Source of the DNA: a virus | DNA: 13,326 nucleotides | UHGV virus genome: UHGV-0203667 | Direction: 5' to 3' (one strand) | Part shown: piece after piece, positions 532 through 13,326 of the stretch | How the letters are laid out: each line of letters starts with the position of its first letter | Numbering within the stretch: position 1 is the stretch's first letter | Made by a program: the position numbers and the translations under genes | The notes under the pieces: generated by a model | What the model was told of the DNA's origin: nothing | Database searches by the model: none | Seen by the model: the letters and a program-made list of their open reading frames with translations, nothing else

Positions 532-538
532 CCTACCA

Positions 539-562
539 GGGGGCCATCACGGCCCCTTTTTA
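539..562 (+). terminator. Rho-independent terminator of the 1-531 gene
   Basis: GGGGCC (540-545), loop atcac, GGCCCC (551-556), followed by TTTTTATTT. Confidence 0.85.
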
Positions 563-580
563 TTTATCCCTCAATTAACC

Positions 581-610
581 CCTATTTATCCCCTATTTAA
601 TGCCTATTTA
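581..610. repeat. Three direct CCTATTTA repeats at exact 11-bp phasing (581, 592, 603), with a degenerate copy at about 561
   Basis: Read directly: cCCTATTTAtc cCCTATTTAat gCCTATTTAtt. One repeat per helical turn suggests a phased protein-binding or bent-DNA site. Confidence 0.6.
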
Positions 611-691
611 TTGATTTAATCCGTTTTATGTCACAACCGCCCGGTTGACAGAGTAATAGAGAGGGTGTAACCCTTTTTCGTAATACTAATA

Positions 692-707
692 AAATCAATA
701 AGTTAGC
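692..707. repeat. 16-bp exact repeat AAATCAATAAGTTAGC (partner at 8423-8438)
   Basis: The identical 16-mer occurs at both sites on the same strand. Each lies shortly downstream of the end of a plus-strand gene (531 and 8411). Confidence 0.6.
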
Positions 708-761
708 TTAATAAGCCTTTTCTCTATTTTTGTCAAATTTAACATACCCTAAAAAACTGCA

Positions 762-795
762 AAATCTGGCTGCAAGATTATCTGCAGCTGGATTT
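762..795. other. Imperfect 11-bp hairpin or inverted repeat
   Basis: AAATC tg GCTGCA agattatc TGCAGC tg GATTT. Confidence 0.4.
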
Positions 796-981
796 CTTAC
801 ACCTCATTTTGTGGTATCACCCTGGCTAGTTTGTGCATAAATTGAACAGTTTTTAACATTTCCTCCTCACCTGGTAACCACACAAAAAGCTAAAAACGAG
901 GCACAGATAATCTTAGAGGCCTGTTTTCTTGTTATCACTCTGGAAACGCCGTAGAAGTGATTTTGATGAAAGATGACCTAC

Positions 982-1000
982 CCTATTACACCCCTATTTT
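982..1000. repeat. Second pair of CCTATT(A/T) repeats at 11-bp phasing (982, 993)
   Basis: cCCTATTAca ccCCTATTTT; the same core and phase as the 581-610 cluster. Confidence 0.45.
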
Positions 1001-2011
1001 TTGTTATCACAATTGCATCCTGTGCGGTGTATGGCTATGTACTGAAAGCGGTTTTGGGTGTGGGTGTCAGAAATATCCATTAGCGGTATTAATACCTGTC
1101 AGATGTTCGTCTGAGGTGCCAGGCAGGCGCTCCCCTACCTCCCTTTTTTCTTCTAACAATTCTCAAATATCCGACCACTACTGACCACGTTGCTATTATG
1201 TTAATTCTTAAGCTTTGCTGTATGTTGTGCACATTATTTATTCAGGTGGCTGTACGTAAATTCTGTGCCCACTGATCATGATTTTTAAATCAGATTTTGT
1301 AGTGCGCTTTATTAGTGTAGATAAGATCTATTATGTTAAATGCAATTTTCCCAACCCTTCAAATCAATGACTTACGTGTAAGCATGCACTAACACCCCAC
1401 ACAGCACATTAGCCGTATAGATGGCTATACCCCACATATTTGATTGTTTTGTAGTCATTCCCCTGATCATTTAACCAGTATAGCTTGTTATCTGCAGACC
1501 ACAAAATAGGAATTTACATCTGATTAACATAATCTGTTAGCATGATCACTATTACCCACACAACAATAACCCCATGTAAGCCTCTTCAGGCAATTTATCG
1601 GCGTGTTGGTGTGAACAGTCTTTCATGTTCTTTATGAATGCATTGTCCTGTGTGAGGGAAGGATGGACTGCCTCAGGGGCCATACTTATGATGCCCGGTC
1701 AACATAGCTATTGATAAAATCAACGGGTGTTGATCTACATATTTCCCACACATGAGAGGAAATCAGAGCAAAGAGAGAGGAGAGAGGTTTGTTAGTCACA
1801 TATGGTGATTTGAGCTCATCTCAAACCTTCTACGAAGGCCTTTGCTAGTCAAAATAGGTCAATTGACGGCTAATACAGAGTAAAAAATCAGATGCAATCA
1901 CTCCCCACCTGTTGGGATTAACGGCCCCGAGTCAAGGCCTATGCAACGAGGGTATTTCCTACAACCCCTTTCAGTCATACTCAGGCACCACACCCCGGTA
2001 AATATTACCCT

Positions 2012-2320
2012 ACTACCCCGGAAGATTTCTCCGCACTACCTGTAAAATATTTTTACTACTAACACCCTCGAGACGAGGGCTATTTGCACGAGTTTAACGC
2101 TCTCGGGAAGAGCTATAGGCGATTCTACCTGTGAAGAATTTTCACACCTGTGTGTTTATACAGTCATACTTTCCTGTTTTGCAGTCATTGCACCCATGAT
2201 ACACAGCCTCTAACTACTGAAGATTTCTCACTACTTAACCACCATACCTACCCACACCCCTGAGAATTTCTCACCACTACTACCGAAGATTTCTCACTAG
2301 TACCCCTGAGAATTTCTCAC
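2012..2320. repeat. Iteron field: six direct repeats with core GA(A/G)(G/A)ATTTCTCAC, mostly flanked by ACTAC; candidate replication-origin or regulator-binding array
   Basis: Cores sit at 2021 (GAAGATTTCTCcg), 2219, 2262, 2285 and 2308, plus a degenerate palindromic variant GTGAAGAATTTTCAC at 2131-2145. The last three cores are exactly 23 bp apart. A short AT-rich stretch (taaaatatttttac, about 2043-2056) lies inside the field. A wHTH initiator-like gene lies about 1.1 kb downstream. Confidence 0.65.
2146..2165. promoter_or_regulatory. Candidate second LexA box (weaker)
   Basis: ACCTGTGTGTTTATACAGTC has the full CTGT-N8-ACAG core. It matches 14/20 positions of TACTGTATATATATACAGTA and lies inside the iteron field. 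Confidence 0.3.
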
Positions 2321-2342
2321 TCTAATAGATAAAGGAATAGAT

Positions 2343-2387
2343 CAATAAAAAGACCTCCCCCCTAACCCCCAGGGGGAATGGGGAGGG
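2343..2387 (-). terminator. Strong rho-independent terminator readable only on the minus strand, with no minus-strand CDS upstream of it
   Basis: The minus-strand RNA reads CCUCCCC auu CCCC cug GGGG uua GGGGAGG followed by UCUUUUUAUU. On the plus strand the hairpin has no U tract after it. Confidence 0.75.
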
Positions 2388-2389
2388 AT

Positions 2390-2830
2390 CAGAGAGTGGG
2401 GAAGGTTTTCTAAGGGAAAAGCTTAACCCACAAATGAAAGCCTAAAGAGCATGAGCGACTCTTTAGGCAATCTGTGTGGGGTGACAATGTATTCCATACA
2501 TGACACGTCACCCAATTGTGTGTGGGGAGCGTAGTGCTATAGCACGTAGCTTTATAGTGTGGAGTCCGGATAAGAGACTTCTGTTTCCAATCCGGACCGT
2601 TTAAGCGAGTGGTTTCTCGCGCGGGTGCACGCACACATATATAAAGGATACACTCATAAATCGAAAATAAGGCCCCTAAATGGCCTTCTGGCTGCATTAA
2701 CCTGTGTGAGTAGTGCAATTGCATTACCTGACCTCTAAATCGCGTTAGAATCGATTTTAGAGCGCTTAAGGCAAAAGTGCTCTCCCTCCCTTGTGGACTT
2801 GCTTGTACCTATAGCACACCTAAATGATAA
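2390..2830. ncRNA. Candidate structured non-coding RNA or structured DNA region (strand unresolved)
   Basis: There is no credible ORF. Hairpins and palindromes:
- 10-bp perfect hairpin at 2440-2468.
- 13-bp hairpin at 2479-2513, flanked by direct TGTGTGGGG repeats (2473-2481 and 2519-2527).
- 12-bp palindrome GTGCTATAGCAC at 2534-2545.
- 8-bp perfect hairpin at 2564-2597.
- Hairpin at 2669-2687.
- 10-bp palindrome TGCAATTGCA at 2715-2724.
- Two mutually exclusive hairpins at 2733-2762 and 2759-2783. The latter has a G-T pair that only works on the plus strand. Confidence 0.35.
2658..2687 (-). terminator. Possible second minus-strand intrinsic terminator
   Basis: The minus-strand RNA reads AAGGCC auuuagg GGCCUU followed by AUUUUCGAUUU. 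On the plus strand there is no U tract. Confidence 0.4.
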
Positions 2831-2839
2831 TAATTCTCA

Positions 2840-2868
2840 TTGACAATTGGTTGACAATATGATAAGAT
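2840..2868 (+). promoter_or_regulatory. Sigma70-type promoter P1 (TTGACA-17-TAAGAT)
   Basis: -35 TTGACA at 2840-2845, 17-bp spacer, -10 TAAGAT at 2863-2868. A second TTGACAAT sits 11 bp downstream (2851-2858) and a third at 3031-3038. Confidence 0.65.
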
Positions 2869-2903
2869 TATAAATAGGGGGAGAAACAGATCCGGAGGTC
2901 AAT

Positions 2904-3053
2904 GTGGAAATTACAGATGTAATAGCGATCATCAACCTGGCTGTACTGTGGTGCGGTGTTGCCTACATAGCCGGAGTAACTGCAATCGACAACCTTGAAG
3001 AAAAAATGATAGATAAATACAAAAAGATTGTTGACAATCTCGCAAATAGCTGA
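2904..3053 (+). CDS. Small (49 aa) single-pass membrane protein, not in the supplied ORF track (GTG start)
   Basis: GGAGG (2895-2899) plus 4 nt precedes GTG at 2904. The translation is VEITDVIAIINLAVLWCGVAYIAGVTAIDNLEEKMIDKYKKIVDNLANS, ending at TGA 3051-3053. It has a hydrophobic N-terminal helix and a charged C-terminus. The gene has its own promoter (P1) and a downstream terminator. Confidence 0.55.
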   Translation: MEITDVIAIINLAVLWCGVAYIAGVTAIDNLEEKMIDKYKKIVDNLANS

Positions 3054-3059
3054 TAAAAT
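3031..3059 (+). promoter_or_regulatory. Sigma70-type promoter P2 (TTGACA-17-TAAAAT) embedded in the 3' end of the small ORF
   Basis: -35 at 3031-3036, 17-bp spacer, -10 TAAAAT at 3054-3059. It would start a transcript at about 3066, upstream of the 3109-3141 terminator and the 3183 gene. Confidence 0.5.
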
Positions 3060-3182: not shown

Positions 3183-3398
3183 ATGGCAAGCAACGGACCG
3201 ACTAGCCCCCTGGTTAGCTGGACTACTGATGAGATCGTCGAAAACGTGCTCAGCGGCAAGTTTTATAAAAATTCTGTTTATGCTTTTATCCGTCGTAATA
3301 AAGGAAAATATCCACACATTGAAGCGGCAATTTTAGAACTGAACCGTCTTCGCCTTGAGCGTGAGCTGGCTAAATACACCAACAACATTGATAAATAA
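3183..3398 (+). CDS. Small hypothetical protein (71 aa)
   Basis: AGGAGG sits 7 nt upstream of the ATG. The C-terminal half is basic and helical. The gene is immediately followed by the rep-like gene. Confidence 0.7.
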   Translation: MASNGPTSPLVSWTTDEIVENVLSGKFYKNSVYAFIRRNKGKYPHIEAAILELNRLRLERELAKYTNNIDK

Positions 3399-3411
3399 TT
3401 ATGGGGGAACT

Positions 3412-4308
3412 ATGGCAAGTAATTACGGGGAGGTTTTTAATCCCCATTTCGAACGCCTCATTCAGTACACTTTTGATAAACCAGTAGCAACAACAATTGC
3501 TAATAAAAAGACTGGAAAAACAAAAGAGCGATTTAATTTAGACCTGATAGAGGTAACAATTTATGGAAAAATGGCAGGTTTTCATTTAAACGGGCAAGAA
3601 ATATTTATCTCAGAGCAGACCTTAGCAAAAATATGTGGTGTGAGTGATAGAAAAATCATCGAATCTATCAAAACTCTGGAAAATGCCGGGCTTATTTCTA
3701 AAGAAAGCCGGAAAGGTATGTCTAACATTTACAAACTGTTAATTACTCCTTCTCAAATCTGCAAAATGTGTGATGAACAGAAGATAGAACCAATGAGTAA
3801 TGCAGGTGGTGAAGATAAACAGCCTCAGGAAGCCCCAAAACAAGCCACACAGCAAGCTAAAAAGGCTAAAGTAGTGCAATTGCCTACCCAAGACACTAAA
3901 GCGCCTCAAATTAACGCTGTTAGTGACAAGCCACGCCGGGGCCGTCCTGTGAAAGATGTAACCGATGGGGGCTGGATTGTCCTGGGTGAGAGTGAAGCTA
4001 AAGATAGAATGCGCTCACTGTGGGAAAGCAAATACAAAGGTTTAAATAAACGTTGCCCGATCCGTTTGTCAAAGATTCAGGAGGATTTTTACACCACAGA
4101 GGAGGTAATACGCCATAAAGGCAATAGAGACGGTGAAATCTGGAAACCGGAAGAATACTGGCATTTAACCAGACCTGTTTTTATTTTTGCAAATAAACTT
4201 ATTGGGATGGGATTTGAAATATTGTTAGATCAAACTTACGGAGATTATCCTGAAATATTGTGGAGAAATGTTAGAAAGAATAAAAAAGGCATTTTAGAGT
4301 TTAGATAA
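3412..4308 (+). CDS. Putative replication-initiator/O-like DNA-binding protein: N-terminal winged-HTH, Q/A/K-rich linker with AT-hook (RRGRP), C-terminal domain
   Basis: The start is moved from 3355 to ATG 3412 (GGGGGA SD; removes the overlap with the 3183 gene). The motif ISEQTLAKICGVSDRKIIESIKTLENAGLISKESRKG is typical of wHTH initiator or DnaD-like N-termini. KPRRGRPVKD is encoded around 3931-3948. The iteron field lies upstream. Confidence 0.6.
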   Translation: MASNYGEVFNPHFERLIQYTFDKPVATTIANKKTGKTKERFNLDLIEVTIYGKMAGFHLNGQEIFISEQTLAKICGVSDRKIIESIKTLENAGLISKESRKGMSNIYKLLITPSQICKMCDEQKIEPMSNAGGEDKQPQEAPKQATQQAKKAKVVQLPTQDTKAPQINAVSDKPRRGRPVKDVTDGGWIVLGESEAKDRMRSLWESKYKGLNKRCPIRLSKIQEDFYTTEEVIRHKGNRDGEIWKPEEYWHLTRPVFIFANKLIGMGFEILLDQTYGDYPEILWRNVRKNKKGILEFR

Positions 4309-4349
4309 AAATACTGATAATCTTATTTTTTTGTTTAAGGAAATTTAAA

Positions 4350-4496
4350 ATGTATGGCGATTTTGATTATTACCTGGAAAAGGAAAAATATTTTGAAGAT
4401 GAACTATCACAACATTTTTCATATTGGGAAGAATATTGTGGTTGGTTAGCTGAAGATCCAGCAGATGAAGAAAATGATTCTGACATCCCTTATTAA
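4350..4496 (+). CDS. Small (48 aa) strongly acidic protein, not in the supplied ORF track
   Basis: AAGGAA lies upstream of ATG 4350. The translation is MYGDFDYYLEKEKYFEDELSQHFSYWEEYCGWLAEDPADEENDSDIPY, with a stop at 4494-4496. It fills an otherwise empty gap between genes on the same strand. Confidence 0.5.
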   Translation: MYGDFDYYLEKEKYFEDELSQHFSYWEEYCGWLAEDPADEENDSDIPY

Positions 4497-4587
4497 TATC
4501 CCCAAATAAACCAACAAACTACTAAATAAACTAATTACTAGAACTAGATTGATTGCCCTGATCTTTTAAACGTTCGGAGAATTAATC

Positions 4588-5076
4588 ATGTTCAAATCTG
4601 ATCTTTCTGATTCCCAATTTGAAAAACTGGTAGCACTGCAGAAATATCTCCCCAGTGATGATCAACCAACACGACAGGCCAAGCACTTATTAGTCGAGGG
4701 CTTTACCCCTGAATTCGTTGCGGAATACACAGGCGTTAAACTTGAGAAAGTCCAAAAACTATATGAAGAATCCTGGAATCCACGGTGTCGAGTTCCCCTC
4801 AGTGTCTATAACGAAATAGATAGAGATAGAAATGTCTTCGAAGATCGCCGCCGCAAATCTCTTTTAATGTGGAATTGCGGGATGAATATTGAAGAGATAG
4901 CAAAAGAATTAAAAGTAACCTGCTTTCATGTCTGGGGCTTGTTGAGCGACCTCCTGCCACGTAAGGAGCTTAATCAACGTTTGCCTAAGCCCGGTAGTCG
5001 TGCTTATCGCGAATTTATATTCATCTACCGCCGCCATAGAAATAAAGTCCAGAAAGCAATGGCCCAGAAAGCCTGA
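4588..5076 (+). CDS. Hypothetical DNA-binding protein with two HTH-like segments and a basic tail
   Basis: GGAG lies upstream of the ATG. The HTH-like segments are FTPEFVAEYTGVKLEKVQKLY and MNIEEIAKELKVTCFHVWGLL. The C-terminus is Arg/Lys-rich. Confidence 0.7.
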   Translation: MFKSDLSDSQFEKLVALQKYLPSDDQPTRQAKHLLVEGFTPEFVAEYTGVKLEKVQKLYEESWNPRCRVPLSVYNEIDRDRNVFEDRRRKSLLMWNCGMNIEEIAKELKVTCFHVWGLLSDLLPRKELNQRLPKPGSRAYREFIFIYRRHRNKVQKAMAQKA

Positions 5077-5116
5077 GTTTTATCTCTTCGATTTATTTAT
5101 TTTCGACTCACTTTAA

Positions 5117-5159
5117 CCCCTTCCGGGGCTTGACGTTGTCAAGGCCGCAGCTATGCGGC
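5117..5159 (+). promoter_or_regulatory. Triple tandem hairpin module, copy 1 (partner at 12577-12621)
   Basis: CCCC ttcc GGGG | CTTGAC gtt GTCAAG | GCCGCA gcta TGCGGC, with no spacers. It ends 20 nt before the 5180 start codon. Stems are conserved in the partner copy through compensatory changes. Confidence 0.6.
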
Positions 5160-5179
5160 TCTAATTTAAGGAATTCCAA

Positions 5180-5623
5180 ATGTCTCAAATCGCTAAATTA
5201 TTATCCCAGGTTATCAAAGCTATCGACGCTGAAGATTCAAAAGTTCGCCAGGATCTTTTAGATGGCAAGTTTACCAACACCCTGGCATTTACCCGTGACA
5301 AAGAGCACTTCTTAAAGCACAGACATCACGCTTTCGCTGAATGCAAGTCCGCTAATGGTGATGTTTTCTATGTCGATTTGGTGGTTATGGCATGTAGATT
5401 GTGGATGATTCAGGACCTTATGCGCCAACACGGTGATGATCCTTTTATCAGCATGTGGAACAGCGCCCAGGATGGCTTTGTGATTGCTGCCTTATCCAAA
5501 TCCATGATTGAGGCAGAAGGCGCAAGCCTTCAGAACATGGCAGATCTCTTTGAAATAAGCGTAGGAATGATGCAGACCATGCTGCAGGCGGTGAAGCCTC
5601 TCAAACTGGTTAATCTTGCTTAA
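5180..5623 (+). CDS. Hypothetical protein (147 aa)
   Basis: AAGGAA lies upstream of the ATG. The composition is coding-like and there is no competing ORF. Confidence 0.75.
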   Translation: MSQIAKLLSQVIKAIDAEDSKVRQDLLDGKFTNTLAFTRDKEHFLKHRHHAFAECKSANGDVFYVDLVVMACRLWMIQDLMRQHGDDPFISMWNSAQDGFVIAALSKSMIEAEGASLQNMADLFEISVGMMQTMLQAVKPLKLVNLA

Positions 5624-5639
5624 GCTATTGATAAATAAG

Positions 5640-5662
5640 CACTCCCCATTTTTTGGGGGGTG
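5640..5662 (+). other. Stem-loop downstream of the 5180-5623 gene (no U tract); possible RNA stabiliser or weak terminator
   Basis: CACUCCCCA uuuuu UGGGGGGUG forms 9 bp including one U-G pair, so it folds only as plus-strand RNA. Confidence 0.45.
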
Positions 5663-5683
5663 CATCAATGAGAGGGTATGCCT

Positions 5684-6118
5684 ATGAATATTGAAGAAAT
5701 GATAGTTGAATTCGAAGAGGGTGATTTCCTGGAAGAAGGGGAGTTTAAATACTCCCGTTTTAAACAGGCGTTATTTAGCAGCGATGATAAACCCCACGTT
5801 AGTGATCTTAACGACGATGATTTATGTCGCTGGGTATGCACCCGCTTATATGAAGATGGAAAGTATACAGGCCAAAACTTTCCAAATCTCTATTTCAAAG
5901 CACAAACATTTGAGGAAGGGCAAAGAGTGAAAAACCTGGTCGATAAAATGCTGTCAGCCGGATATTTGCATAAAGAATTATTAAATCCTAAAGCTGAAAG
6001 CAAGCGCCATTATATTTTTGTGTGGTCTGTGGGGGATAAGTGCCCACTGCATGGGAGTCCTTCCAGGACCTTAGCTAAAGCTAAGCCCGTTGGGTCTGTT
6101 AAGCGTAAAGGCAAATGA
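5684..6118 (+). CDS. Hypothetical protein (144 aa), acidic N-terminus, possible winged-helix C-terminal half
   Basis: ATG 5684 is preferred over 5678 because GAGGG lies 7 nt upstream of it. The stop TGA at 6116-6118 lies just before the next start codon. Confidence 0.7.
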   Translation: MNIEEMIVEFEEGDFLEEGEFKYSRFKQALFSSDDKPHVSDLNDDDLCRWVCTRLYEDGKYTGQNFPNLYFKAQTFEEGQRVKNLVDKMLSAGYLHKELLNPKAESKRHYIFVWSVGDKCPLHGSPSRTLAKAKPVGSVKRKGK

Positions 6119-6119
6119 T

Positions 6120-6305
6120 ATGAATACCTACGAAAAGATTTATCAAAAATTAAAAAGTGATAACAATGCTCCCGTCATCAAGGGCGGGGCTTCTTCCTCT
6201 GGTGACCTCTCAATCGAAGAGCTTGCGGAGAAATATAATATTGATAAAGAGGCCCTGAAAAGGGCTATTTCATTATCAAAATCTTTAAGACAGGGCGAGG
6301 TGTAA
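6120..6305 (+). CDS. Small hypothetical protein (61 aa)
   Basis: ATG 6120 lies 1 nt after the upstream stop, suggesting translational coupling. The track ORF from TTG 6090 overlaps the upstream gene and is less likely. Confidence 0.6.
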   Translation: MNTYEKIYQKLKSDNNAPVIKGGASSSGDLSIEELAEKYNIDKEALKRAISLSKSLRQGEV

Positions 6306-6308
6306 GAG

Positions 6309-8411
6309 ATGGCAATGAAGGAAGTCGCCAGACTAACAAACGTTATTTACTGGGACTCTGATAAATCCTCCTGGCGAAAAGAAGTTAAGCGCTTGGAGGA
6401 TTATAAAAAATCCTGGAAGAAAGCTACCGACGATATAGCTAAAGCGGATTTTAAATCTAATCAGGCTGTGCTCAGAACACAAAGAACACGCGCTAAGGTG
6501 GAAGAGCAGATCGCCAGAGCACAGAAGAAACAACGTGCTCAGGCTGTCAGCCGTCTGACCGGGGGCAATAATCCGGAGCTCTCCTCTATGCGCAAGTTCT
6601 ATCAGCAGCAAGCCAGAGAGGCCGCCAGACAACAAAAACTGTTAGATCGTAGTGTTGGAGATGTTCAGCACAGAAAAGCACGTGTAGGGGCCAACAGTGC
6701 ACGAATCAGCAGCATGTTTGATGGCTCCCTGGTTGCTCAGTTCCAATCCAGAATTCAAAGAGTTAATGCTGATTATGCTAAAGGGGCTATTAACCTGCAG
6801 ACCTATAATCAGAAAATGGCCCGACTCAGATCTGAAATGAAGATGGCAACAGCAGAGGCCGGAAAATTTCAGAGCAAACTGGATAGAGTTGCGATCACAG
6901 GATCTAAGCTGCATGACAACCTGGGGAAACTAAATTCTACTTTAGGCAAGATAGCTATTGGCCTTACTGCCGCTGGCTGGGGTGTTCAGCGTGCTGTTAG
7001 TGGTGCTATGGGTAGCCTTGCAGATCGCAACAGTGCCTACTTCGGTTTGATGGCACAGAACAAGGATGATAAAGCCAAGACTGATCAGCAGATGGCCTAC
7101 GTCAAAAGAATCTCTTATGACTACGGGATGGATCAGCGTGAGACCGAAGGCGGTTTTATGCGCTTTGCTGCAGCCACACCGAGCATAGAAGAGAAAGATA
7201 AACAGGCTCTTTTTGAGGCTATGGCTATTAAAGGTCGCTCAGTGGGTGCTACCGCAGACCAACAGAACAGGGCTATCGTTGCACTAGGGCAAATATATAG
7301 CAAGGGCGGTCGGGTGTATGCGGAAGAGCTTAAGGGCCAACTTTCTGAAGCCCTGGCAGGTTCTCAGGTAGATTTCACTAAGGCCGCTATCGATGCCGGA
7401 GTCATCAAGAAAGAGGAAGAATTTAATAAAGCCCTTGAAGATGGCAAGATCACCATGGATAAGCTTCTCCCTTCTTTGGTGAAAATCTGGTCTGCAGCCA
7501 AGAATACGAAAGCCTTTGCTGAATCCATGAAACAGCCAGAAGTAGCAATGCAGCGCATGAAAAACAGCTTTAACGAGCTGGCGATTCAGTTTATGGGTGT
7601 TGTGGATCCTGCCGATGGCGTTGTTAGCTTATCTGAATCTCTGATCTCCATCTTCGAAGACCTCACCACTGATATGGACGGCAGCGGGAGCGCGGCAAAA
7701 CAGTTTGGTGAAGCAGTCGGTGCTGCCATGCGGGAGATCATGTATTGGGTAGGCTTCGCTAAGGGATATATCGAGGTCAAGGCTAAAGAGTTCGGCATGA
7801 CCGGATCAGAGGTTGGCGAGCTTATCGGGAAACTAGTAGTCGGCTTAGCTGGTCTGAAAGTTATTACCACACTGCTTTCCCCTCTAACCGGATTTGTTTC
7901 ACTTGTCACCCAACTGATAGCCTTGTTAGGTAAAATCCCTGGTATGAGCAAGCTTATGGCATCTGCCTCAGGTGGAACGGCAACAGGAGCAGCAGTTATC
8001 AGTGCAGGCTCTAACGCTGAAAGAAGCTTCATTGATGGCAAGACGCAGGAAATGAGTAAGGAGAACTCAAAACAGGGTGCTTTGTTTGAGCTGGGAAGAT
8101 TTGTCAGCAATGCTGGCGCACTGTTCACACCTGGCGGTGATACTGGTCCTTTGTTCGATCAGGTCAAAGGCTGGTTTAATAAAGGGCCAACATTGACAGT
8201 AGACACTGGCATCAGACCAACACCAACGGGTGGCATAGCTATCCAGAATGGTGGATATCAACCAGTCCAAGTAAATGTAGCCCCACAAGGTGAGATTTCC
8301 GGCAAATGGGAGATAACCATCGATGAGGGGGGAATTGCCAGGGTGATCCAGAAGGAAGTCAGCGATCAGTTGGATTGGAAAGCCACACAGGAATCTAACC
8401 AGCTTTTCTAA
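6309..8411 (+). CDS. Phage tail tape measure protein (700 aa)
   Basis: The N-terminus is a long K/R/Q/A-rich coiled coil. The central region GQIYSKGGRVYAEELKGQLSEALAG is typical of the tape-measure core domain. A hydrophobic segment LIGKLVVGLAGLKVITTLLSPLTGFVSLVTQLIALLG follows, then a Gly-rich C-terminus. A GAGG SD lies upstream. Confidence 0.85.
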   Translation: MAMKEVARLTNVIYWDSDKSSWRKEVKRLEDYKKSWKKATDDIAKADFKSNQAVLRTQRTRAKVEEQIARAQKKQRAQAVSRLTGGNNPELSSMRKFYQQQAREAARQQKLLDRSVGDVQHRKARVGANSARISSMFDGSLVAQFQSRIQRVNADYAKGAINLQTYNQKMARLRSEMKMATAEAGKFQSKLDRVAITGSKLHDNLGKLNSTLGKIAIGLTAAGWGVQRAVSGAMGSLADRNSAYFGLMAQNKDDKAKTDQQMAYVKRISYDYGMDQRETEGGFMRFAAATPSIEEKDKQALFEAMAIKGRSVGATADQQNRAIVALGQIYSKGGRVYAEELKGQLSEALAGSQVDFTKAAIDAGVIKKEEEFNKALEDGKITMDKLLPSLVKIWSAAKNTKAFAESMKQPEVAMQRMKNSFNELAIQFMGVVDPADGVVSLSESLISIFEDLTTDMDGSGSAAKQFGEAVGAAMREIMYWVGFAKGYIEVKAKEFGMTGSEVGELIGKLVVGLAGLKVITTLLSPLTGFVSLVTQLIALLGKIPGMSKLMASASGGTATGAAVISAGSNAERSFIDGKTQEMSKENSKQGALFELGRFVSNAGALFTPGGDTGPLFDQVKGWFNKGPTLTVDTGIRPTPTGGIAIQNGGYQPVQVNVAPQGEISGKWEITIDEGGIARVIQKEVSDQLDWKATQESNQLF

Positions 8412-8422
8412 TATTGTGATCT

Positions 8423-8438
8423 AAATCAATAAGTTAGC
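8423..8438. repeat. 16-bp exact repeat AAATCAATAAGTTAGC (partner at 692-707)
   Basis: Identical to 692-707. It lies 12 nt after the tape measure stop codon. Confidence 0.6.
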
Positions 8439-8460
8439 CTGACCGGATAAACTCCAGGCA

Positions 8461-8493
8461 AGAAAAAAGCCCCTAAGTGTTAACAAAGGGGCT
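8461..8493 (-). terminator. Rho-independent terminator, strong on the minus strand and weak at best on the plus strand
   Basis: The minus-strand RNA reads AGCCCCU uuguuaacacuu AGGGGCU followed by UUUUUUCU. On the plus strand the stem is followed by CUUCUCC. Confidence 0.75.
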
Positions 8494-8913
8494 CTTCTCC
8501 GGTATCCTTTTGATGCGGGGCAAAACCTGCTAACAAAAATCAACCTCTCGCGAGACTAATGTTAGCAGGTTGCCGGAAGGTAAGTCAACTCCGGCCTATA
8601 AACCTTAAAGCGACTATAAAATTGCCCCGCCAATTGTGATGATCCGACCTTTGAGGCGGGTCCGGTGCCCAGGGGGTGCAGTGATGCACAAACCAGGCAA
8701 CGATAAACAGGCTAACAGTGATAGCGGCGCTCTCTCAGCGCACTAAATCCTAACCAGTCCGGGAAAGAGGCTGGCTCTATCGACCGCTCATGCACGGGAC
8801 AATGCATACCTGATAAAGGATTCTCACAAGGGACCAATCGCGAGAAAAGAAGTGGAAAGGGGCTGATTTGTGGTGTATCACTACGGCCTCAAAAGACACC
8901 CTATTGCCTTTTT
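8494..8913 (-). ncRNA. ORF-free, highly structured roughly 420-nt region between the last minus-strand CDS and its terminator; candidate structured 3' UTR or ncRNA
   Basis: The supplied track has no ORF here. A perfect three-way junction spans 8515-8630: outer stem GCGGGGCAA/TTGCCCCGC (9 bp), inner stem ACCTGCTAACA/TGTTAGCAGGT (11 bp, with a 24-nt loop holding the palindrome TCTCGCGAGA), and inner stem GCCGGA/TCCGGC (6 bp). Further hairpins are GTGCA gtga TGCAC (8676-8689) and GCGCT ctctc AGCGC (8727-8741). The strand is assigned from the terminator orientation only. Confidence 0.4.
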
Positions 8914-9372
8914 TCAGCCTCTCCCCACATTTGACCAGTATTTGATTGCACCGATCAAATCATCATAGTGGCGCATTGCATCATTGAAGCCTTTATAGCT
9001 TGCCCATTGTGGGGAAACCTTGTTGTTGCTGAATTGCCCACTAATCAGGATAGTCTCCAGAATGTCGGCGTATCGCTTGCCAATTCGCTTCCTGACGGCC
9101 TCAGAGCTCCCACCCTTTACGATTGCATTAATCAGGGCTTTTGTGTGTCTCAGGCTCTCATAGAGCATTGCAGCGTGGGCAGATTCCATAAAGGAGCGCT
9201 TAGGCAGATCACCCCACCCCTCAGAATGAATTGCTGCCAATGTGGCGTAATTCAGGCCGCTATAGTGTTTCCCGTCATCCCAGCCAACCGCTACACCTTC
9301 CATCTGTGAGAGCTCTTTATGCAGCTTATCCATCATGCGCTTGTCTATGGTGCAACGGACTTTCGGACTCAT
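8914..9372 (-). CDS. Putative head-tail joining or tail-completion type virion protein (152 aa)
   Basis: ATGA start/stop overlap with the upstream gene. The motif AAIHSEGWGDLPKRSF resembles the HEFG..P.RPF motif of HK97 gp10-like and morphogenesis proteins. This was recognised by eye only. Confidence 0.6.
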   Translation of the reverse strand: MSPKVRCTIDKRMMDKLHKELSQMEGVAVGWDDGKHYSGLNYATLAAIHSEGWGDLPKRSFMESAHAAMLYESLRHTKALINAIVKGGSSEAVRKRIGKRYADILETILISGQFSNNKVSPQWASYKGFNDAMRHYDDLIGAIKYWSNVGRG

Positions 9373-10181
9373 TTGTTGATCTCCGTGATGTCATCAAGCA
9401 ACATGTTGGCCTTATCAATCATCGTTTCGTGGAACTCATTCGACACGACAGACTTATCACCTGCTGCAATCTTTCCCGCTGCCTCTCCCTGTGCATATTC
9501 CCCGCGATGCTTAGCCCTGGTTGATTTCGTAGCAGCATTGCCAGCGTTACTACCCTCTTTAGCACTGTTAACAGCACCCTTTTGCTGTGTTTTATTCACC
9601 TTCTTACTGTTAGTGAAAACTCCGGCATTTTCGACCATCTTCACCTTGAAGGTGCGGAATTCTTCAAAAGTGCAATCAATAGTGATGCAGTCGCCAGAGG
9701 AAGAGCTACGCTTAACTTCACATTTCGTCATGATGAAGTTCTCAAGGAGTCCGACATCTTCACCCACCAGGCTGATAATCTGGCGCTTGTCTCTCATTTC
9801 CATAAGTGCCTGAACAGCGGCAGCAGGGCGCATAGATTCACGGGGATTATCTGGATCAGTGTTCCGGTCGATGTAGTTCTCTTTCCGGATGATATGAGGG
9901 GAAGAGGTAATAATACCCGTAAAGCTGACAGATTTATCTTTAATGACGGCATGGTCTGACATGGTGGTGCCATCCTCGACCGCATAGCTCGATTTCTCAA
10001 CAGGGAACGAATAGCTGACATCAGAGATAGAGTCAAAGAAGATAGCCACATTATCGGTATAGTTGAAGCCATCCATCATATTTTTGTTTTGTGAATATCC
10101 CCCACACATAACAGTGAATGCAGGAGATCTCGACTCAGCTTGTTTTGCAGCTGTCAGAGCATCACTAGCCATATTAAACAT
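9369..10181 (-). CDS. Putative virion structural protein (270 aa) with K/A/G-rich C-terminal region; the N-terminal half is reminiscent of Dit-like/baseplate-type domains (weak call)
   Basis: GGAGG lies upstream. The start may be ATG 10181 or ATG 10172 (MASDALT), which has better SD spacing. It sits inside the structural operon. Confidence 0.6.
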   Translation of the reverse strand: MFNMASDALTAAKQAESRSPAFTVMCGGYSQNKNMMDGFNYTDNVAIFFDSISDVSYSFPVEKSSYAVEDGTTMSDHAVIKDKSVSFTGIITSSPHIIRKENYIDRNTDPDNPRESMRPAAAVQALMEMRDKRQIISLVGEDVGLLENFIMTKCEVKRSSSSGDCITIDCTFEEFRTFKVKMVENAGVFTNSKKVNKTQQKGAVNSAKEGSNAGNAATKSTRAKHRGEYAQGEAAGKIAAGDKSVVSNEFHETMIDKANMLLDDITEINK

Positions 10182-10246
10182 GCCTCCAAATTGAATCTTT
10201 TGGTGGCCCTGTGTGAATTCTGATAAAAAGACAGGGCTATCTATCG

Positions 10247-10507
10247 TTATTTTGCAAAACGATTATGCGCATTCAGGGCTTTTTTGCGGTCCTGGGCTTG
10301 TTTGCGTGCAATAAAATGTTCGAAAGTCTCGGCCCAGGTGCATTTATTATATTCACGGTATTTGTGCATAGCCTGGCGGCTAACTTGATAGACAGATGCG
10401 AATGTGGAGATACGCAGGAATTCCGGCAGATCCTCGTCATCGATATGGATAATATCAAAAGGCACGTCATCACGGTCGCCGTATAAAACAATTTTCATAA
10501 AAGACAC
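10247..10507 (-). CDS. Small HTH-containing protein (86 aa) inserted between capsid and downstream virion genes
   Basis: GAGGTG lies 6 nt upstream of the ATG. The HTH-like segment is ISTFASVYQVSRQAMHKY, and the N-terminus is acidic. Confidence 0.7.
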   Translation of the reverse strand: MSFMKIVLYGDRDDVPFDIIHIDDEDLPEFLRISTFASVYQVSRQAMHKYREYNKCTWAETFEHFIARKQAQDRKKALNAHNRFAK

Positions 10508-10531
10508 CTCAAAAACTTAAGACGGGGATAA

Positions 10532-10580
10532 CAAAAAAGGGAGGAGGGAAAGACCTACCCACAATCTCCCACCTCTTCCC
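10532..10580 (-). terminator. Probable partial (leaky) intrinsic terminator just after the major capsid gene
   Basis: The minus-strand RNA reads GGGAAGAGGUGGGAG auuguggguaggu CUUUCCCUCCUCCC followed by UUUUUU. The stem is imperfect, with G-U pairs that are valid only on the minus strand. Confidence 0.5.
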
Positions 10581-10587
10581 TTTTCTT

Positions 10588-11631
10588 TTATTTAGCCTTG
10601 GCTTTTGCCAGAGCAGCGGCGGCGGTGTTTTTAACACTCACTTTAACCACCACCTCGGGCATCATATTCATAAATGCGTATGAGCTCTCGCAAAAGACCT
10701 CGCGCTTAGCTCTTGAATCTTGCATATACATGAAAGCTTCACGTGCAGCGCCGTTTGCCAGCTGCAGATTGCGAGCGCAAGGGCCAAAAAATTGAGTATA
10801 AACACCCATATCGCCCAGTGCATAAGGCTGGAATTGTGGGACCAGATAAGCAGTATTCTCTGGCAGACTATCCATTTGCACCACACGCAGGGCTAAGCCC
10901 GGAATGCGGAAGGTCGGGAAGCCCGGCAGAATATCCTCAGGGAACATCAGACCTTTGTCGGTAATGTTCTGATTGCCGAACAACAGCACTTTACGAAGCA
11001 GCTCGTCAGTCTGAATTGCAGCAAAGAGTTCAGCACGGCAGAACAGGGTGAAACCACGCAGGGCACGAACGACACCACGCTGTTTAACCTTGCTCAGTGC
11101 AACCAGGTCCTGCAGCTGTTTAAGGATATCTTGAGCTAGATCCACTTCAGAGGTGGACTGTTCTACTCCCAGCAGTTCGCACACATTCAGTTCTTTACCC
11201 TTGGTGAGGATAATTTTGTTCTCAAAGAGAGCAAGCTGGCGTGCTTCTTCGTGGGTCTGGCGTAAGCCTTCGCCAAGCTGAATAACACGACGAGCGGTTA
11301 CAGACTCTAAATTCTCTTCGGAATCTTTGCCCGGAACACGGATACCTTGCCAGTCTGACGGGAATATGGCCGAGCTGGCGGCTGTAAAGGCCATGTCGCC
11401 CGTGCCCGTTTCACGCTCATCTGCGGTAATGGTAGCCATCTGTTCACCGTAGCGCGGATACTGACCGAAAGCGGTTTGTTTCACCCTGCGAACTTTGTCG
11501 TACTCAAATTTGAACGTCGAAGAATAGACGGTAGTATTAAACACGTTCATTGCTGAAATAATCTGGTTATCCAGCGGGATATCTTTAATCAGACCACACA
11601 GATCGCGAACTTCGAATTCTTTCTTAGCCAT
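10588..11631 (-). CDS. Major capsid protein, lambda gpE-like family (347 aa)
   Basis: The start is reset to MAKKEFEV at 11631, with AAGGAGG 6 nt upstream. The track start at 11730 gives a Cys-rich extension that overlaps the upstream gene. The size, the position after a roughly 110-aa decoration-like gene, and the C-terminal pattern (...ESSYAFMNMMPEVVVKVSV) resemble lambda gpE (...SAPLMLLADPDEFVSVQLA). Confidence 0.75.
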   Translation of the reverse strand: MAKKEFEVRDLCGLIKDIPLDNQIISAMNVFNTTVYSSTFKFEYDKVRRVKQTAFGQYPRYGEQMATITADERETGTGDMAFTAASSAIFPSDWQGIRVPGKDSEENLESVTARRVIQLGEGLRQTHEEARQLALFENKIILTKGKELNVCELLGVEQSTSEVDLAQDILKQLQDLVALSKVKQRGVVRALRGFTLFCRAELFAAIQTDELLRKVLLFGNQNITDKGLMFPEDILPGFPTFRIPGLALRVVQMDSLPENTAYLVPQFQPYALGDMGVYTQFFGPCARNLQLANGAAREAFMYMQDSRAKREVFCESSYAFMNMMPEVVVKVSVKNTAAAALAKAKAK

Positions 11632-11642
11632 TTTCAACCTCC

Positions 11643-11978
11643 TTATTGTGCAACACGCAAATCGCCATTGCTGGCAGCAACAACAGCGGCTAAGCCGTCT
11701 TTGTCCACATAGGCCGGATTGATGTAGCAACCTTTGTTCGCAACAACGATAAAGGAATCACCAACTTCAGCACGTTCTACAACCAGCAGCGGAGTTTTAT
11801 CGGTGTGCGTTGCTTTAACGAAGGTCTCAACCTCGCCAGCCTCAGTCACCACAACAACAGTGCCAGCCGGAATCTCAGCCTTAACTTTGTTTTTAACTTC
11901 AACGTCGCGAATACTAAATTGCTCATCTGCGGCGTATGAAATGATGTGTCCGCGTGTGCGGATAGTCATATCTCTCAT
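11643..11978 (-). CDS. Putative head decoration/cement protein (111 aa)
   Basis: AGGTGA lies upstream of the ATG. It is a beta-rich roughly 110-aa protein immediately upstream of the capsid gene, the gpD position in lambda. The family assignment is tentative (gpD-like versus DUF2190-like). Confidence 0.65.
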   Translation of the reverse strand: MRDMTIRTRGHIISYAADEQFSIRDVEVKNKVKAEIPAGTVVVVTEAGEVETFVKATHTDKTPLLVVERAEVGDSFIVVANKGCYINPAYVDKDGLAAVVAASNGDLRVAQ

Positions 11979-12452
11979 TTGATCACCTGCGATTTAAATT
12001 AACTCCCCTCAAAGGGCTCAGGTATAACCTCTCAAACCACGACAGGCTCGGGCCGAAAAGTTATGCCGGAAATCTAAAGGGGGATTGATATAAGGAGAGG
12101 GAGATAGCCCCGCACCGTCCAAGCGGGGGCTATTCCATATGGGGAAAACCAACAACAGTTGGCTGATAGTTCACTGCATGGTTACGGTTGCTAGAGAGCA
12201 CTATCACGAAAGGCACTCCCCCGAATCAGTTCAGGCTGCGGTCACATCAGCGGGGAAATACCTTTCGGGATAGCTACCCACACCGAAAACCCGCAAAAGA
12301 AAACTGTGTGGATAACTAGCCCAATAGGAGAATTAATCGACCACTCTAAGATGATCAGGGTAGTGTTATTTATAAGGCGGCACCGCTACCTGGTCGCCGT
12401 TACTTTGGAGGAAAATACGGCAAATCACCTTCGCTAAATGATTCACGGTATA
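11979..12452 (-). other. Roughly 470-nt ORF-free structured leader between the LexA-controlled promoter and the head genes
   Basis: There is no ATG ORF with an SD. Structures include a 10-bp bulged stem ATAGCCCCGC/GCGGGGGCTAT (12104-12133), CCAAC aaca GTTGG (12149-12162), CCACAC/GTGTGG (12279-12311) and others. No hairpin followed by a U tract was seen on the minus strand. Confidence 0.5.
12307..12315 (-). promoter_or_regulatory. Perfect DnaA box (TTATCCACA on the minus strand)
   Basis: The plus strand reads TGTGGATAA at 12307-12315. It is a single copy, so chance cannot be excluded. Confidence 0.3.
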
Positions 12453-12470
12453 CTGTATATTATATCAGTA
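12451..12470. promoter_or_regulatory. LexA (SOS) box
   Basis: TACTGTATATTATATCAGTA keeps CTG-N10-CAG intact and matches 15/20 positions of TACTGTATATATATACAGTA. All mismatches are A/T swaps in the spacer. It overlaps the -10 element and the start site of the minus-strand promoter. Confidence 0.8.
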
Positions 12471-12487
12471 TTTACTCACATTGTCAA
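12459..12487 (-). promoter_or_regulatory. Perfect consensus sigma70 promoter (TTGACA-17-TATAAT) directed leftward toward the head operon
   Basis: The minus strand reads TTGACA atgtgagtaaatactga TATAAT. The -35 is at 12482-12487 and the -10 at 12459-12464. The predicted start site is near 12452. Confidence 0.85.
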
Positions 12488-12576
12488 CACCCTGATTATA
12501 TAAATTCTAATAATTAGCGTAGTAACGGTATTTTCAGACCTCTATCAATCCCATCAATACGTCACCTCATCCCTGA

Positions 12577-12621
12577 CCTGCTTTGCAGGCTTGGCACACA
12601 GCCAAGGTCGCAGCTATGCGA
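12577..12621 (+). promoter_or_regulatory. Triple tandem hairpin module, copy 2 (partner at 5117-5159)
   Basis: CCTGC ttt GCAGG | CTTGGC acaca GCCAAG | g | TCGCA gcta TGCGA. It shares GCTTG..CAAGG and CGCAGCTATGCG with copy 1, and the stem differences are compensated. Confidence 0.6.
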
Positions 12622-12629
12622 CTCCTATC

Positions 12630-12660
12630 ATCTATCATAACTTTTTCATTCGTGATAGAT
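12630..12660. promoter_or_regulatory. 8-bp inverted repeat ATCTATCA-N15-TGATAGAT (possible operator), with a direct TATCAT duplication
   Basis: Read directly. It lies between the hairpin module and the right-hand small genes. Confidence 0.3.
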
Positions 12661-12757
12661 ATCTTTTGATCAATATCAATGTTTTCCTGGGATTTGCCCG
12701 GCTATAGTTCGAATCAAGGAAGGGGAGCATTGATAGCACCAAAACCGAACAAACAAA

Positions 12758-12772
12758 TCAACTTCTCGCAAA
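12758..12772 (+). repeat. Conserved 5'-UTR motif TCAACTTCTCGCAAA (exact copy at 13301-13315; related TCAACCTCTCGCGAG at 8540-8554)
   Basis: The 15-mer is identical at both sites, on the same strand, and each is followed by a purine-rich SD-like sequence (AAGGTGA or AGGGG). Confidence 0.55.
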
Positions 12773-12783
12773 AGGTGATAGTT

Positions 12784-12906
12784 ATGGGTATCAAGAACAG
12801 TGCCAGCGCATGGCAAAAGGCCAGGTTTCATCACCCACACATTGTTAAGGCAATTGAGGTGGTTGGAGTGTTAGCCCTGATGTTAGCTCTGTGTGTGGAG
12901 GTGTGA
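12784..12906 (+). CDS. Small (40 aa) membrane protein
   Basis: AAGGTGA lies 5 nt upstream of ATG 12784. The translation is MGIKNSASAWQKARFHHPHIVKAIEVVGVLALMLALCVEV, with a hydrophobic C-terminus. The track start at 12679 has no SD and would translate through the conserved UTR motif. Confidence 0.5.
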   Translation: MGIKNSASAWQKARFHHPHIVKAIEVVGVLALMLALCVEV

Positions 12907-13008: not shown

Positions 13009-13269
13009 ATGACGGGGGCTAAAGATATCAGGAGACTGAGGGAAGAGCTGATAGCTGAAATTAAAGCTAAGGCAAAGCAAATGGAGATAGCCGCGCAAAT
13101 GGATGTAGCGGAACAGATGTACAAGATGGTTGAAGAGGGAACACCACGACAGGTTATCGCTAAAACCTTCGGTGTGGGGATCGCCACCGTGCACAGAAGG
13201 CTGAAAGCCTATGCCGACTACCACAACATTGAGAGAGGGGAGGATGGGAGATTTAAGAAGAATAAATAG
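13009..13269 (+). CDS. Small HTH DNA-binding protein (86 aa), coiled-coil N-terminus
   Basis: GGAG lies upstream of the ATG. The HTH segment is TPRQVIAKTFGVGIATVHRRLKAY. Confidence 0.75.
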   Translation: MTGAKDIRRLREELIAEIKAKAKQMEIAAQMDVAEQMYKMVEEGTPRQVIAKTFGVGIATVHRRLKAYADYHNIERGEDGRFKKNK

Positions 13270-13300
13270 TAGGAACAGTCCAACAGGTTATTAACTAAAT

Positions 13301-13315
13301 TCAACTTCTCGCAAA
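13301..13315 (+). repeat. Second copy of the 5'-UTR motif TCAACTTCTCGCAAA
   Basis: Identical to 12758-12772. It is followed by GGGG, and the window ends before any start codon. Confidence 0.5.
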
Positions 13316-13326
13316 GGGGTACCGTC

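Follow-up and report, generated by a model that had tools for sequence, protein, structure and literature searches.

Satellite plasmids of Vibrio crassostreae, termed PISP and cf-PISP, provide a recent precedent for small replicons that combine plasmid replication with a phage capsid gene (PMC13230959). These elements are circular, extrachromosomal and 11-16 kb in length, and they carry replication functions and a capsid gene within an incomplete virion set. They have ParA/RepA and no tail genes, and cf-PISP elements additionally encode portal, protease, adaptors, terminases and HNH. The subject of this study is UHGV-0203667, a stretch of 13,326 nucleotides (hereafter the window, meaning the whole stretch), which is one complete circular Escherichia coli plasmid of ~13.3 kb. 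The window resembles the PISP elements in size, in circular extrachromosomal form and in pairing replication functions with a capsid gene and an incomplete virion set, but its structural set is not confined to the head: genes for a tape measure protein, a tail tube initiator and a completion protein are present, and portal, protease, terminase and the other head and packaging genes are missing. It also differs in its lambda-O-like replication initiator (Rep), in the lack of ParA (none was found on the plasmid), in its capsid lineage and in its host.

Like the window, certain satellites of Mycolicibacterium carry genes for a major capsid protein as well as for a tape measure protein; the authors who described these EPIP elements stress how rare this is among satellites, and a tape-measure-like protein has been reported for PLE11 (PMC12822802). 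Unlike the window, EPIPs are integrative (by a serine integrase), carry small terminase, adaptor, stopper and scaffold genes and depend on a temperate siphovirus helper, and they have no sequence relationship to it. Satellite-encoded HK97-fold capsid proteins and satellite-sized capsids are also found with cfPICIs and with SaPIbov5 Ccm. However, cfPICIs have a full set of head and packaging genes and steal nothing but tails, whereas the window has tail-core genes and lacks portal and terminase. The PICI and cfPICI types are moreover chromosomal islands with an integrase and att; profile searches found no integrase on the window plasmid, and the element occurs in seven of 5,426 complete E. coli genomes as a plasmid every time, with no chromosomal copy.

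A further parallel is offered by the satellite PLE of Vibrio cholerae, which has a virulent myovirus as its helper and remodels the assembly of helper virions. PLE is integrated, is triggered by helper proteins, uses the external scaffold TcaP instead of its own capsid and has no sequence relationship to the window. Phage-plasmids of the P1, N15 and SSU5 types likewise place phage genes on an autonomous plasmid, but they are 40-110 kb or more in size and carry complete virion and lysis genes, and the window holds no such complete set of virion, packaging and lysis functions.

We consider it somewhat better than an even chance (roughly 55%) that the window is an autonomously replicating plasmid that acts as a phage satellite and obtains the rest of its virion from a helper myovirus. 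This reading is favored because the plasmid has its own replication functions, is predicted to make no virion alone, keeps a selected and fixed subset of virion genes, varies little in size, has a private capsid lineage and carries a seemingly switchable late promoter.

The plasmid family and its virion genes

E. coli plasmid records of 13,238-13,697 bp align with the window end to end (megablast; 81-95% coverage, 91-93% identity), and gene order and orientation are identical in every annotated complete relative. Independent complete records from five countries agree in this order. Human, chicken, cattle and feral pig are the hosts of the carrier isolates, which were collected in Chile, South Africa, Japan and the USA. 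Three metagenomic relatives (L024, L027 and L028) have identical contig ends and hence are circles. Genome size across the clades of the element is 13.2-14.9 kb, except in two records, a resistance derivative of 30 kb and a trimer of 39.6 kb. The window has a GC content of 44.5%, a coding fraction of 67% and no tRNA genes; no megablast match to phages was found, and a scan of GTDB species representatives gave no match. Plasmid records of this family are typed as 'non-mobilizable'. We found no paper in the searchable literature that mentions the accessions or proteins of the family. These small phage-derived E. coli plasmids are apparently both widespread and undescribed. The element is present in several hundred SRA assemblies, and clusters P0004, P0048 and P0083 contain 283-441 members.

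The resistance derivative (L002; NTNY01000053.1, a 30.1 kb contig) has acquired strA/strB, a Tn10-type tet region and insertion sequence (IS) elements, and an insertion has broken its tape measure gene into open reading frames (ORFs) of 622 and 87 amino acids (aa). The other record (L019; NZ_CP043822.1, 39,610 bp) is a head-to-tail trimer of the element in which one copy is full of fragmented genes, and is probably a long-read assembly artefact rather than a real multimer.

An initial annotation, made from the letters of the window, had described a tape measure gene that follows regulatory and other small genes and converges on an opposite-strand head module, and had called this layout and its transcription scheme unconventional. 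This description is borne out. The tape measure gene is the last of a + strand run that starts at the Rep gene and includes helix-turn-helix (HTH), acidic and unclassified proteins; it faces a capsid gene on the - strand (Table 1), and no standard phage morphogenesis module is present. The - strand genes had been named decoration, capsid and joining genes. The capsid assignment stands, with a start codon at the ATG at 11631 rather than at the upstream TTG of a 380-aa ORF, and relatives of this capsid protein match PF03864 (Phage_cap_E). The supposed joining genes instead encode a neck/tail-completion protein and a Dit-like tail tube initiator, the latter matching PDB entry 9cuy_K ('Tube initiator protein', E 4e-34) and also Phi92_gp135.

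The decoration label reflects the size and position of a 111-aa protein. Its ORF lies directly upstream of the capsid gene in every locus compared, and a 129-aa 'head decoration protein' occupies the slot before the capsid gene in Vequintavirus. Comparison of the 111-aa family with the rV5-type decoration protein gave an hhalign probability of 1.5%, a PDB sequence search with the family returned no match, and an AlphaFold2 model was too poor for a fold search (predicted local distance difference test score, pLDDT, of 41). Its identity as a head decoration protein is therefore a suggestion that is unproven. The 86-aa protein encoded between the capsid and tube initiator genes has no significant family match and also gave a poor AlphaFold2 model (pLDDT 58).

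From these assignments, the window appears to carry five virion genes only, which would supply a capsid shell with its decoration-sized partner and, through the tube initiator, tape measure and completion proteins, the inner axis and the top of a contractile tail. Models for portal, terminase, protease, sheath, tube, baseplate, fibre and lysis proteins (Pfam, PHROGs and NCBIfam) gave no match among the window ORFs, and only the tape measure and capsid ORFs exceed 320 aa. Because these essential virion genes are missing and no other ORF is of such size, the plasmid is predicted to be unable to form a virion alone. The same three collections yielded no tail tube, sheath or assembly-chaperone match among the ORFs upstream of the tape measure gene, in agreement with the earlier statement that a major tail protein and a G/GT chaperone pair are not recognizable there; the small upstream proteins did not turn into tail or chaperone genes when examined with profile models. 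A G/GT-type frameshift pair at 5678-6305 was considered and rejected, as its +1 overlap (between the 146-aa and 71-aa ORFs) is not kept in relatives and neither product matches a chaperone.

In tblastn searches, the phages closest to the window in tape measure and capsid protein are rV5-like myoviruses (Vequintavirinae, ~137 kb, virulent), at ~25% identity. The tape measure alignment spans residues 4-495 (25% identity with the Vequintavirus protein), and the capsid protein is likewise 25% identical to its Vequintavirus counterpart. The other two are considerably closer: the tube initiator and the Vequintavirus 'tail tube initiator' share 49% identity (E 4e-61 against vB_Eco_Alma), and the 152-aa completion protein is 45% identical to an rV5-type protein (PHAGEALMA_054 / bas51_0012; E 3.5e-35 against vB_Eco_Alma). 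Vequintavirinae-type phages of enterobacteria also dominate when the wider matches of these two proteins are considered. Each of the four structural proteins that can be identified therefore has its nearest relatives in Vequintavirinae-type myoviruses, and the lambda-like siphoviruses against which the layout had originally been judged are the wrong yardstick: neither the relatives nor the lack of a major tail protein and G/GT pair fits a lambda-like morphogenesis module.

The curated BASEL genome has the corresponding genes on a single strand. Head decoration (129 aa) comes first, then the major capsid gene, several neck genes (among them that of the 154-aa homologue), sheath and tube, and after two small ORFs the genes for tape measure, tail tube initiator and baseplate. 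Like the window, the Vequintavirinae module has a decoration-sized ORF before the capsid gene and a terminator after it (annotated at the equivalent place in vB_Eco_Alma), and the GC content of Vequintavirus loci (44.2-44.5%) is close to that of the window. However, in the phages all of these genes share one strand of a ~137 kb virulent genome, with chaperones between tube and tape measure, whereas the five window genes are out of this context, reordered, split over two converging operons and carried by a plasmid. Judged by these similarities, the five genes were lifted from a myovirus-type module and do not represent a scrambled lambda module.

One E. coli 'plasmid' entry (L022; CP057073.1, 137,565 bp) is actually an rV5-like phage genome; its isolate differs from that of L021, but both belong to one pooled cattle faecal sample series (RHB39). 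L021 (CP057043.1, a circular plasmid of 20,690 bp) and the 19 kb contigs L014 and L015 form a second small E. coli family, which carries the same trio of Dit-like protein, tape measure (40% identity) and phrog_222 tail-completion protein on one strand. All three additionally have an HNH endonuclease, accompanied in L014 and L015 by a Kil-like ORF and a LexA-like box and in L021 by a small tyrosine recombinase and an AntA/AntB antirepressor. No recognizable capsid gene was found in the three. These 19-21 kb elements can be viewed as a sister family that shares the trio.

The structural genes are intact across five complete relatives and three partial loci, and they are under purifying selection. 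Pairwise ratios of nonsynonymous to synonymous substitution rates (dN/dS) among relatives are 0.15-0.16 for the tape measure gene, 0.10-0.12 for the capsid gene, 0.06-0.14 for the tube initiator gene, 0.00-0.05 for the completion protein gene and 0.13-0.20 for the 111-aa ORF. The whole architecture is reproduced in the diverged circles L027 (14,576 bp) and L028 (13,971 bp), in which the capsid protein is 50%, the tape measure protein 35-38% and the Dit-like protein 52-58% identical to those of the window. Their converging side encodes proteins of 111 aa, capsid, 78 aa, Dit and 150 aa facing the tape measure gene, upstream of which lie genes for proteins of 83-86, 121, 163 and 125 aa, Rep and a 74-aa protein; an ORF-poor region of 2-3 kb is also present. 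Dit-like homologues at 52-58% identity sit on contigs of 14-15 kb.

As the same order occurs in all complete relatives and in diverged circles at 35-58% protein identity, the layout is best read as ancestral and stable, without recent rearrangement, mosaicism or decay. The proposal of a rearranged or mosaic element consequently fails, although the order shared by these relatives does not correspond to any common, well-known genome type.

In protein collections, the lineage of the capsid protein appears tiny and private. When 5.8 billion proteins were searched with a word index, capsid clusters turned up only on 13-14 kb E. coli contigs, and an exhaustive HMMER scan of 1.84 billion representatives recovered only 30 capsid clusters, the close ones all on contigs of 13-15 kb. 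The two nearest clusters (42% and 31% identity) lie in a similar cassette, with the order ~110 aa, capsid, small ORF, Dit-like and 152 aa in one locus (L010) and the first four genes without the 152-aa gene in the other (L011).

Promoters and conserved non-coding DNA

The - strand operon had been assigned its own SOS promoter. The promoter part of this claim is well supported: a sigma-70 promoter that matches both hexamers at 12 of 12 positions is invariant in seven relatives and overlaps a LexA-like box. The SOS part is weaker, as the box is intact in four of the seven relatives and its left CTG is ATG in three. SOS control of the structural operon is plausible from this arrangement but not established. 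There is a precedent in the SaPI packaging operon, which is under LexA control. The long leader that follows the promoter contains a strongly folded stretch (12101-12300, z -5.9).

At its other end, the operon appears to share a terminator with the + strand run, since the hairpin at 8495-8460 lies ~55 nucleotides past the tape measure stop codon and could end both converging transcription units. A weak Rfam match to ctRNA in this gap is the same terminator hairpin, with 23.6 bits against a gathering score of 50.

The gap between the two units (8412-8913) does contain a structured non-coding region, as had been noted. It folds better than shuffled sequences on both strands (z -3.8 and -4.5, with windowed values down to -6.8) and close relatives share it at 98-99% identity. 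When the window is compared with the diverged clade, nucleotide conservation is at its best here, at 8581-8896, rather than in a gene (77-82% identity, E 1e-44 to 1e-59). A consensus fold calculated with RNAalifold in the - orientation, from seven sequences that represent about three lineages, has 52 pairs with 97% of cells paired. Seven pairs show compensatory changes and the covariation score is 0.158; slid controls give 0-3 such pairs and scores no higher than 0.075. Many of the pairs are G-U and are valid only on the - strand. The motif matches no Rfam family. With so few independent lineages, the covariation is suggestive rather than proof of a conserved RNA structure in the 3′ untranslated region (UTR) of the structural operon. 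Candidate roles are a 3′-UTR regulator, a processed small RNA or a packaging-related site.

One 15,489 bp metagenome contig (L023) has a capsid protein 94% identical to that of the window, a tape measure protein only 67% identical and no blastn match to the conserved element at 8560-8913. This pattern of mismatch suggests that the tape measure gene and the 3′ region are exchangeable between lineages.

A second non-coding region of 2.3 kb, equal to 17% of the replicon, precedes the Rep gene. Iteron-like repeats are located upstream of this gene at 561-611 (11 nucleotides x4.6) and at 2213-2322 (23 nucleotides x~4). The segment 601-1700 is 95-98% identical in five complete relatives, although their capsid and tape measure genes diverge by 0.24-0.35 at synonymous sites, and is not predicted to be structured. 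The segment 2301-2700 is strongly structured on both strands (z -8.6 at 2401-2600). This region probably comprises the origin and other cis-acting sites. Distant blastn comparisons of the non-coding blocks with phages, plasmids and E. coli genomes returned only family members or chance matches. Such constrained DNA and RNA fits cis-acting packaging or regulatory sites. An exact match to CTGT-N8-ACAG is present at 2148-2163, adjoining the 23-nucleotide iterons.

Table 1. Positions of genes and other features in the window.
Feature	Position	Strand	Evidence or remark
Predicted membrane protein, 176 aa, Gly-rich C-terminus	1-531	+	No family match
ORF-poor region, 2.3 kb	532-2900		No credible ORF
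Two promoter-like sites, TTGACA-17-TAAGAT and TTGACA-17-TAAAAT, both with TG	2840-3059	+	Ahead of + strand run
Two small ORFs	Between ORF-poor region and Rep gene	+	ORF listing
Lambda-O-like replication initiator (winged HTH)	3355-4308	+	Pfam HTH_36, E 1.4e-7; phrog_270, E 1.5e-10
Five small proteins: 48-aa acidic, 162 aa, 147 aa, 146 aa, 71-aa HTH	4350-6305	+	No family
Tape measure protein, 700 aa	6309-8411	+	Pfam PF20155 (TMP_3), E 1.6e-14; phrog_5255, E 6e-154
GC-rich hairpin with T-run on - strand, terminator of - strand operon	8460-8495		RNA fold
Candidate conserved structured RNA motif, 3′ UTR of structural operon	8709-8889	-	Consensus fold core
Neck/tail-completion protein, 152 aa	8914-9372	-	phrog_222, E 8e-29
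Tail tube initiator (Dit-like), 270 aa	9369-10181	-	Pfam PF21821, E 7e-25
86-aa protein, HTH-like segment	10247-10507	-	Position kept in all clades
Intrinsic terminator/attenuator after capsid gene	10530-10586	-	Hairpin of -31.7 kcal/mol followed by TTTTTTGTT; z -4.7
Major capsid protein, 347 aa	10588-11631	-	phrog_29, E 2e-22
111-aa protein, decoration-sized	11643-11978	-	Size and position
Structural operon leader, ~480 nucleotides	11979-12458	-	Folded core 12091-12310, z -5.9, -86 kcal/mol
LexA-like box, TACTGTATATTATATCAGTA	12451-12470		Overlaps promoter -10; 15 of 20 positions match LexA consensus
Consensus sigma-70 promoter, TTGACA-17-TGnTATAAT	12487-12459	-	12/12 hexamer match
HTH regulator, 86 aa	13009-13269	+	Pfam HTH_7, E 3.5e-6; phrog_664 (DNA-binding), E 6e-7

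The satellite interpretation and its alternatives

Several properties of the plasmid are those expected of a satellite. It lacks essential virion genes, it is a circular extrachromosomal replicon with replication functions of its own (the O-like Rep and the iteron-like repeats), and its genome is small and constrained when compared with the ~137 kb of Vequintavirus. By analogy, the narrow size range would be typical of small-capsid satellites.

A scheme for how such an element could operate can be proposed. In the resting state, the structural operon would be repressed by LexA and/or by the divergently encoded HTH protein, and DNA damage or helper infection would switch it on. The plasmid capsid protein, together with portal, scaffold and protease from the helper, might then form a small shell sized for ~13-14 kb, into which the helper terminase would package the plasmid. 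The cis site for this step would lie in a non-coding block of high conservation, either 601-1700 or 8581-8896 being a candidate; neither block matches a phage. Meanwhile, the plasmid-encoded tube initiator, tape measure and completion proteins could nucleate tails from baseplate, tube and sheath subunits of the helper. The resulting particles would transfer the plasmid and divert helper resources.

A more specific version of the proposal is that these plasmids form a new class of E. coli satellite that supplies its own small-capsid shell and tail inner axis, takes portal, packaging motor, sheath, tube, baseplate and fibres from a large and possibly virulent rV5-type myovirus and uses the 3′-UTR RNA in control or packaging. 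We hold this version only tentatively and would not be surprised to see it fail. Known E. coli satellites (P4, PICIs and cfPICIs) reside in the chromosome and obtain their tails wholesale from the helper. If correct, the proposal would give the first satellite tied to Vequintavirinae-type phages and the first with this tail-core kit, would extend the satellite-plasmid concept from Vibrio to Enterobacteria, and would mean that satellites can encode components for tail length and tail initiation. A handle on how tape measure, tube initiator and completion proteins set compatibility in contractile tails would be a further gain. Phages of the rV5 type are used in therapy cocktails, and a resident element that hijacks or blocks them would affect the efficacy of therapy. 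There is also relevance for the spread of resistance, as a derivative already bears strAB and tet genes, and the 'non-mobilizable' typing could be wrong if the plasmids move in phage particles.

A number of observations weigh against a satellite lifestyle. A scan of IMG/VR found no viral contig that carries either the capsid or the tape measure gene, no small terminase, pac or cos site was found in the window, and the non-coding blocks have no nucleotide similarity to any phage or E. coli chromosome. An rV5-type myovirus is a candidate type of helper only. Vequintavirinae are virulent, which is awkward beside an SOS-type switch, the LexA-like box is degenerate in three of seven relatives, and a capsid protein at 25% identity may fail to co-assemble with the portal and scaffold of an rV5-type phage. 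Finally, the 30 kb derivative persists without an intact tape measure gene, demonstrating that the plasmid survives when the kit is damaged.

This last point would equally suit a plasmid that interferes with phage assembly as a form of defense, with its divergent virion proteins acting as dominant-negative decoys against rV5-type phages and the plasmid itself remaining unpackaged. Two of the homologues are close enough for interaction (45-49% identity) and two are diverged (25%), the promoter is strong and switchable, and defenses that block assembly exist (PMC10884400, PMC11364771). However, five co-conserved structural genes that include a full-length capsid gene and its decoration-sized partner exceed what a decoy needs, and both the narrow size, 13-15 kb, and the private lineage of the capsid protein point to a constraint from packaging. 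Comparison of the window proteins with PADLOC defense models gave nothing meaningful. Interference is also a normal by-product of satellites and is hence compatible with the satellite reading. We judge defense as the sole function to be unlikely, though worth keeping in mind.

The plasmid could also be one segment of a multipartite phage, or the partner of a resident element that supplies the missing virion genes. Its gene set is indeed complementary to what a head-and-tail factory lacks, and a second type of small E. coli element (19-20.7 kb) bears the same tail trio. This second type, however, duplicates the trio and complements nothing. In two carrier strains, the sole other plasmid (judged from accession numbering, with the first 50 kb of each read) is an ordinary virulence plasmid, being of the enterotoxigenic E. 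coli (ETEC) CFA/III type in one and pO157-like in the other, and no element-related chromosomal sequence was found in E. coli genomes. A division of labor between resident elements is thus a distant prospect.

Even less probable is the explanation offered by the initial annotation, namely that a lambda-like prophage or phage-plasmid has left a remnant that is rearranged, mosaic, decaying or domesticated. The incomplete virion gene set, the low coding density (67%) and the presence of the lambda-type families Phage_cap_E and O-like Rep would be compatible with it. Yet all structural genes are intact and under purifying selection with low dN/dS, clades at 35-58% identity share a single layout, the element is found worldwide as a plasmid that replicates autonomously, the non-coding blocks are among its most conserved sequences rather than decaying, and the nearest relatives are myoviruses, not lambda. 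The further idea that the structural block is an invertible segment, with convergence as one of two isoforms, is very unlikely: structured non-coding regions do flank the block, but no inverted repeats join 8412-8913 and 11979-12680, no recombinase catalytic domain was detected (the 86-aa protein at 13009-13269 has only the HTH_7 DNA-binding domain), and a single orientation is seen in all independent assemblies and diverged relatives.

Other genes of the replicon

The gene for the 86-aa HTH regulator diverges from the structural operon and has a dN/dS of 0.08-0.09, and a homologue with 46-47% identity occupies the equivalent position in L027 and L028. The protein is a candidate repressor or regulator, as an alternative or an addition to LexA. 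The position that follows (1-531 in the window) is a variable slot. The 176-aa membrane protein found there has homologues at 38-49% identity in L012 and L028, and unrelated proteins of 195-236 aa take its place in L008 (333-920), L009 (4284-4994) and L002 (7534-8235). In L027, the slot (3382-4315) holds T5orf172/DUF723 proteins. It may serve as a position for accessory or defense cargo, although PADLOC gave no match.

The Rep protein has further matches to replication initiation families (phrog_270/678/391, E 1.5e-10 to 1.5e-8), and in annotated relatives it begins at an internal ATG. Identity between Rep proteins is only 43-91% among plasmids whose other genes are 93-100% identical, which suggests swapping of replicons or incompatibility types inside the family. 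The five small proteins encoded between Rep and the tape measure protein gave no significant match in Pfam, PHROGs, NCBIfam or PADLOC. One of them (162 aa) is 47-49% identical in the diverged clade, and another (147 aa) has a dN/dS of 0.02-0.06.

An ORF of 75 aa at 12679-12906 has a dN/dS of 0.57-0.76, and this long form is probably no gene. Within it, a 40-aa ORF at 12784-12906 (+) has a good Shine-Dalgarno sequence and a hydrophobic C-terminal half and lies in a stretch that is 97% conserved; its product could be a small membrane peptide that is toxin- or holin-like. A 21-nucleotide motif (AAATCAACTTCTCGCAAAGGG-like) occurs four times in one orientation, at 8537-8557, 11996-12016, 12755-12775 and 13298-13318. 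Two of these copies are located just 5′ of start codons, namely those of the ORF at 12784 and of the gene at position 1, and the motif may be a shared element for translation initiation or for the binding of a regulator.

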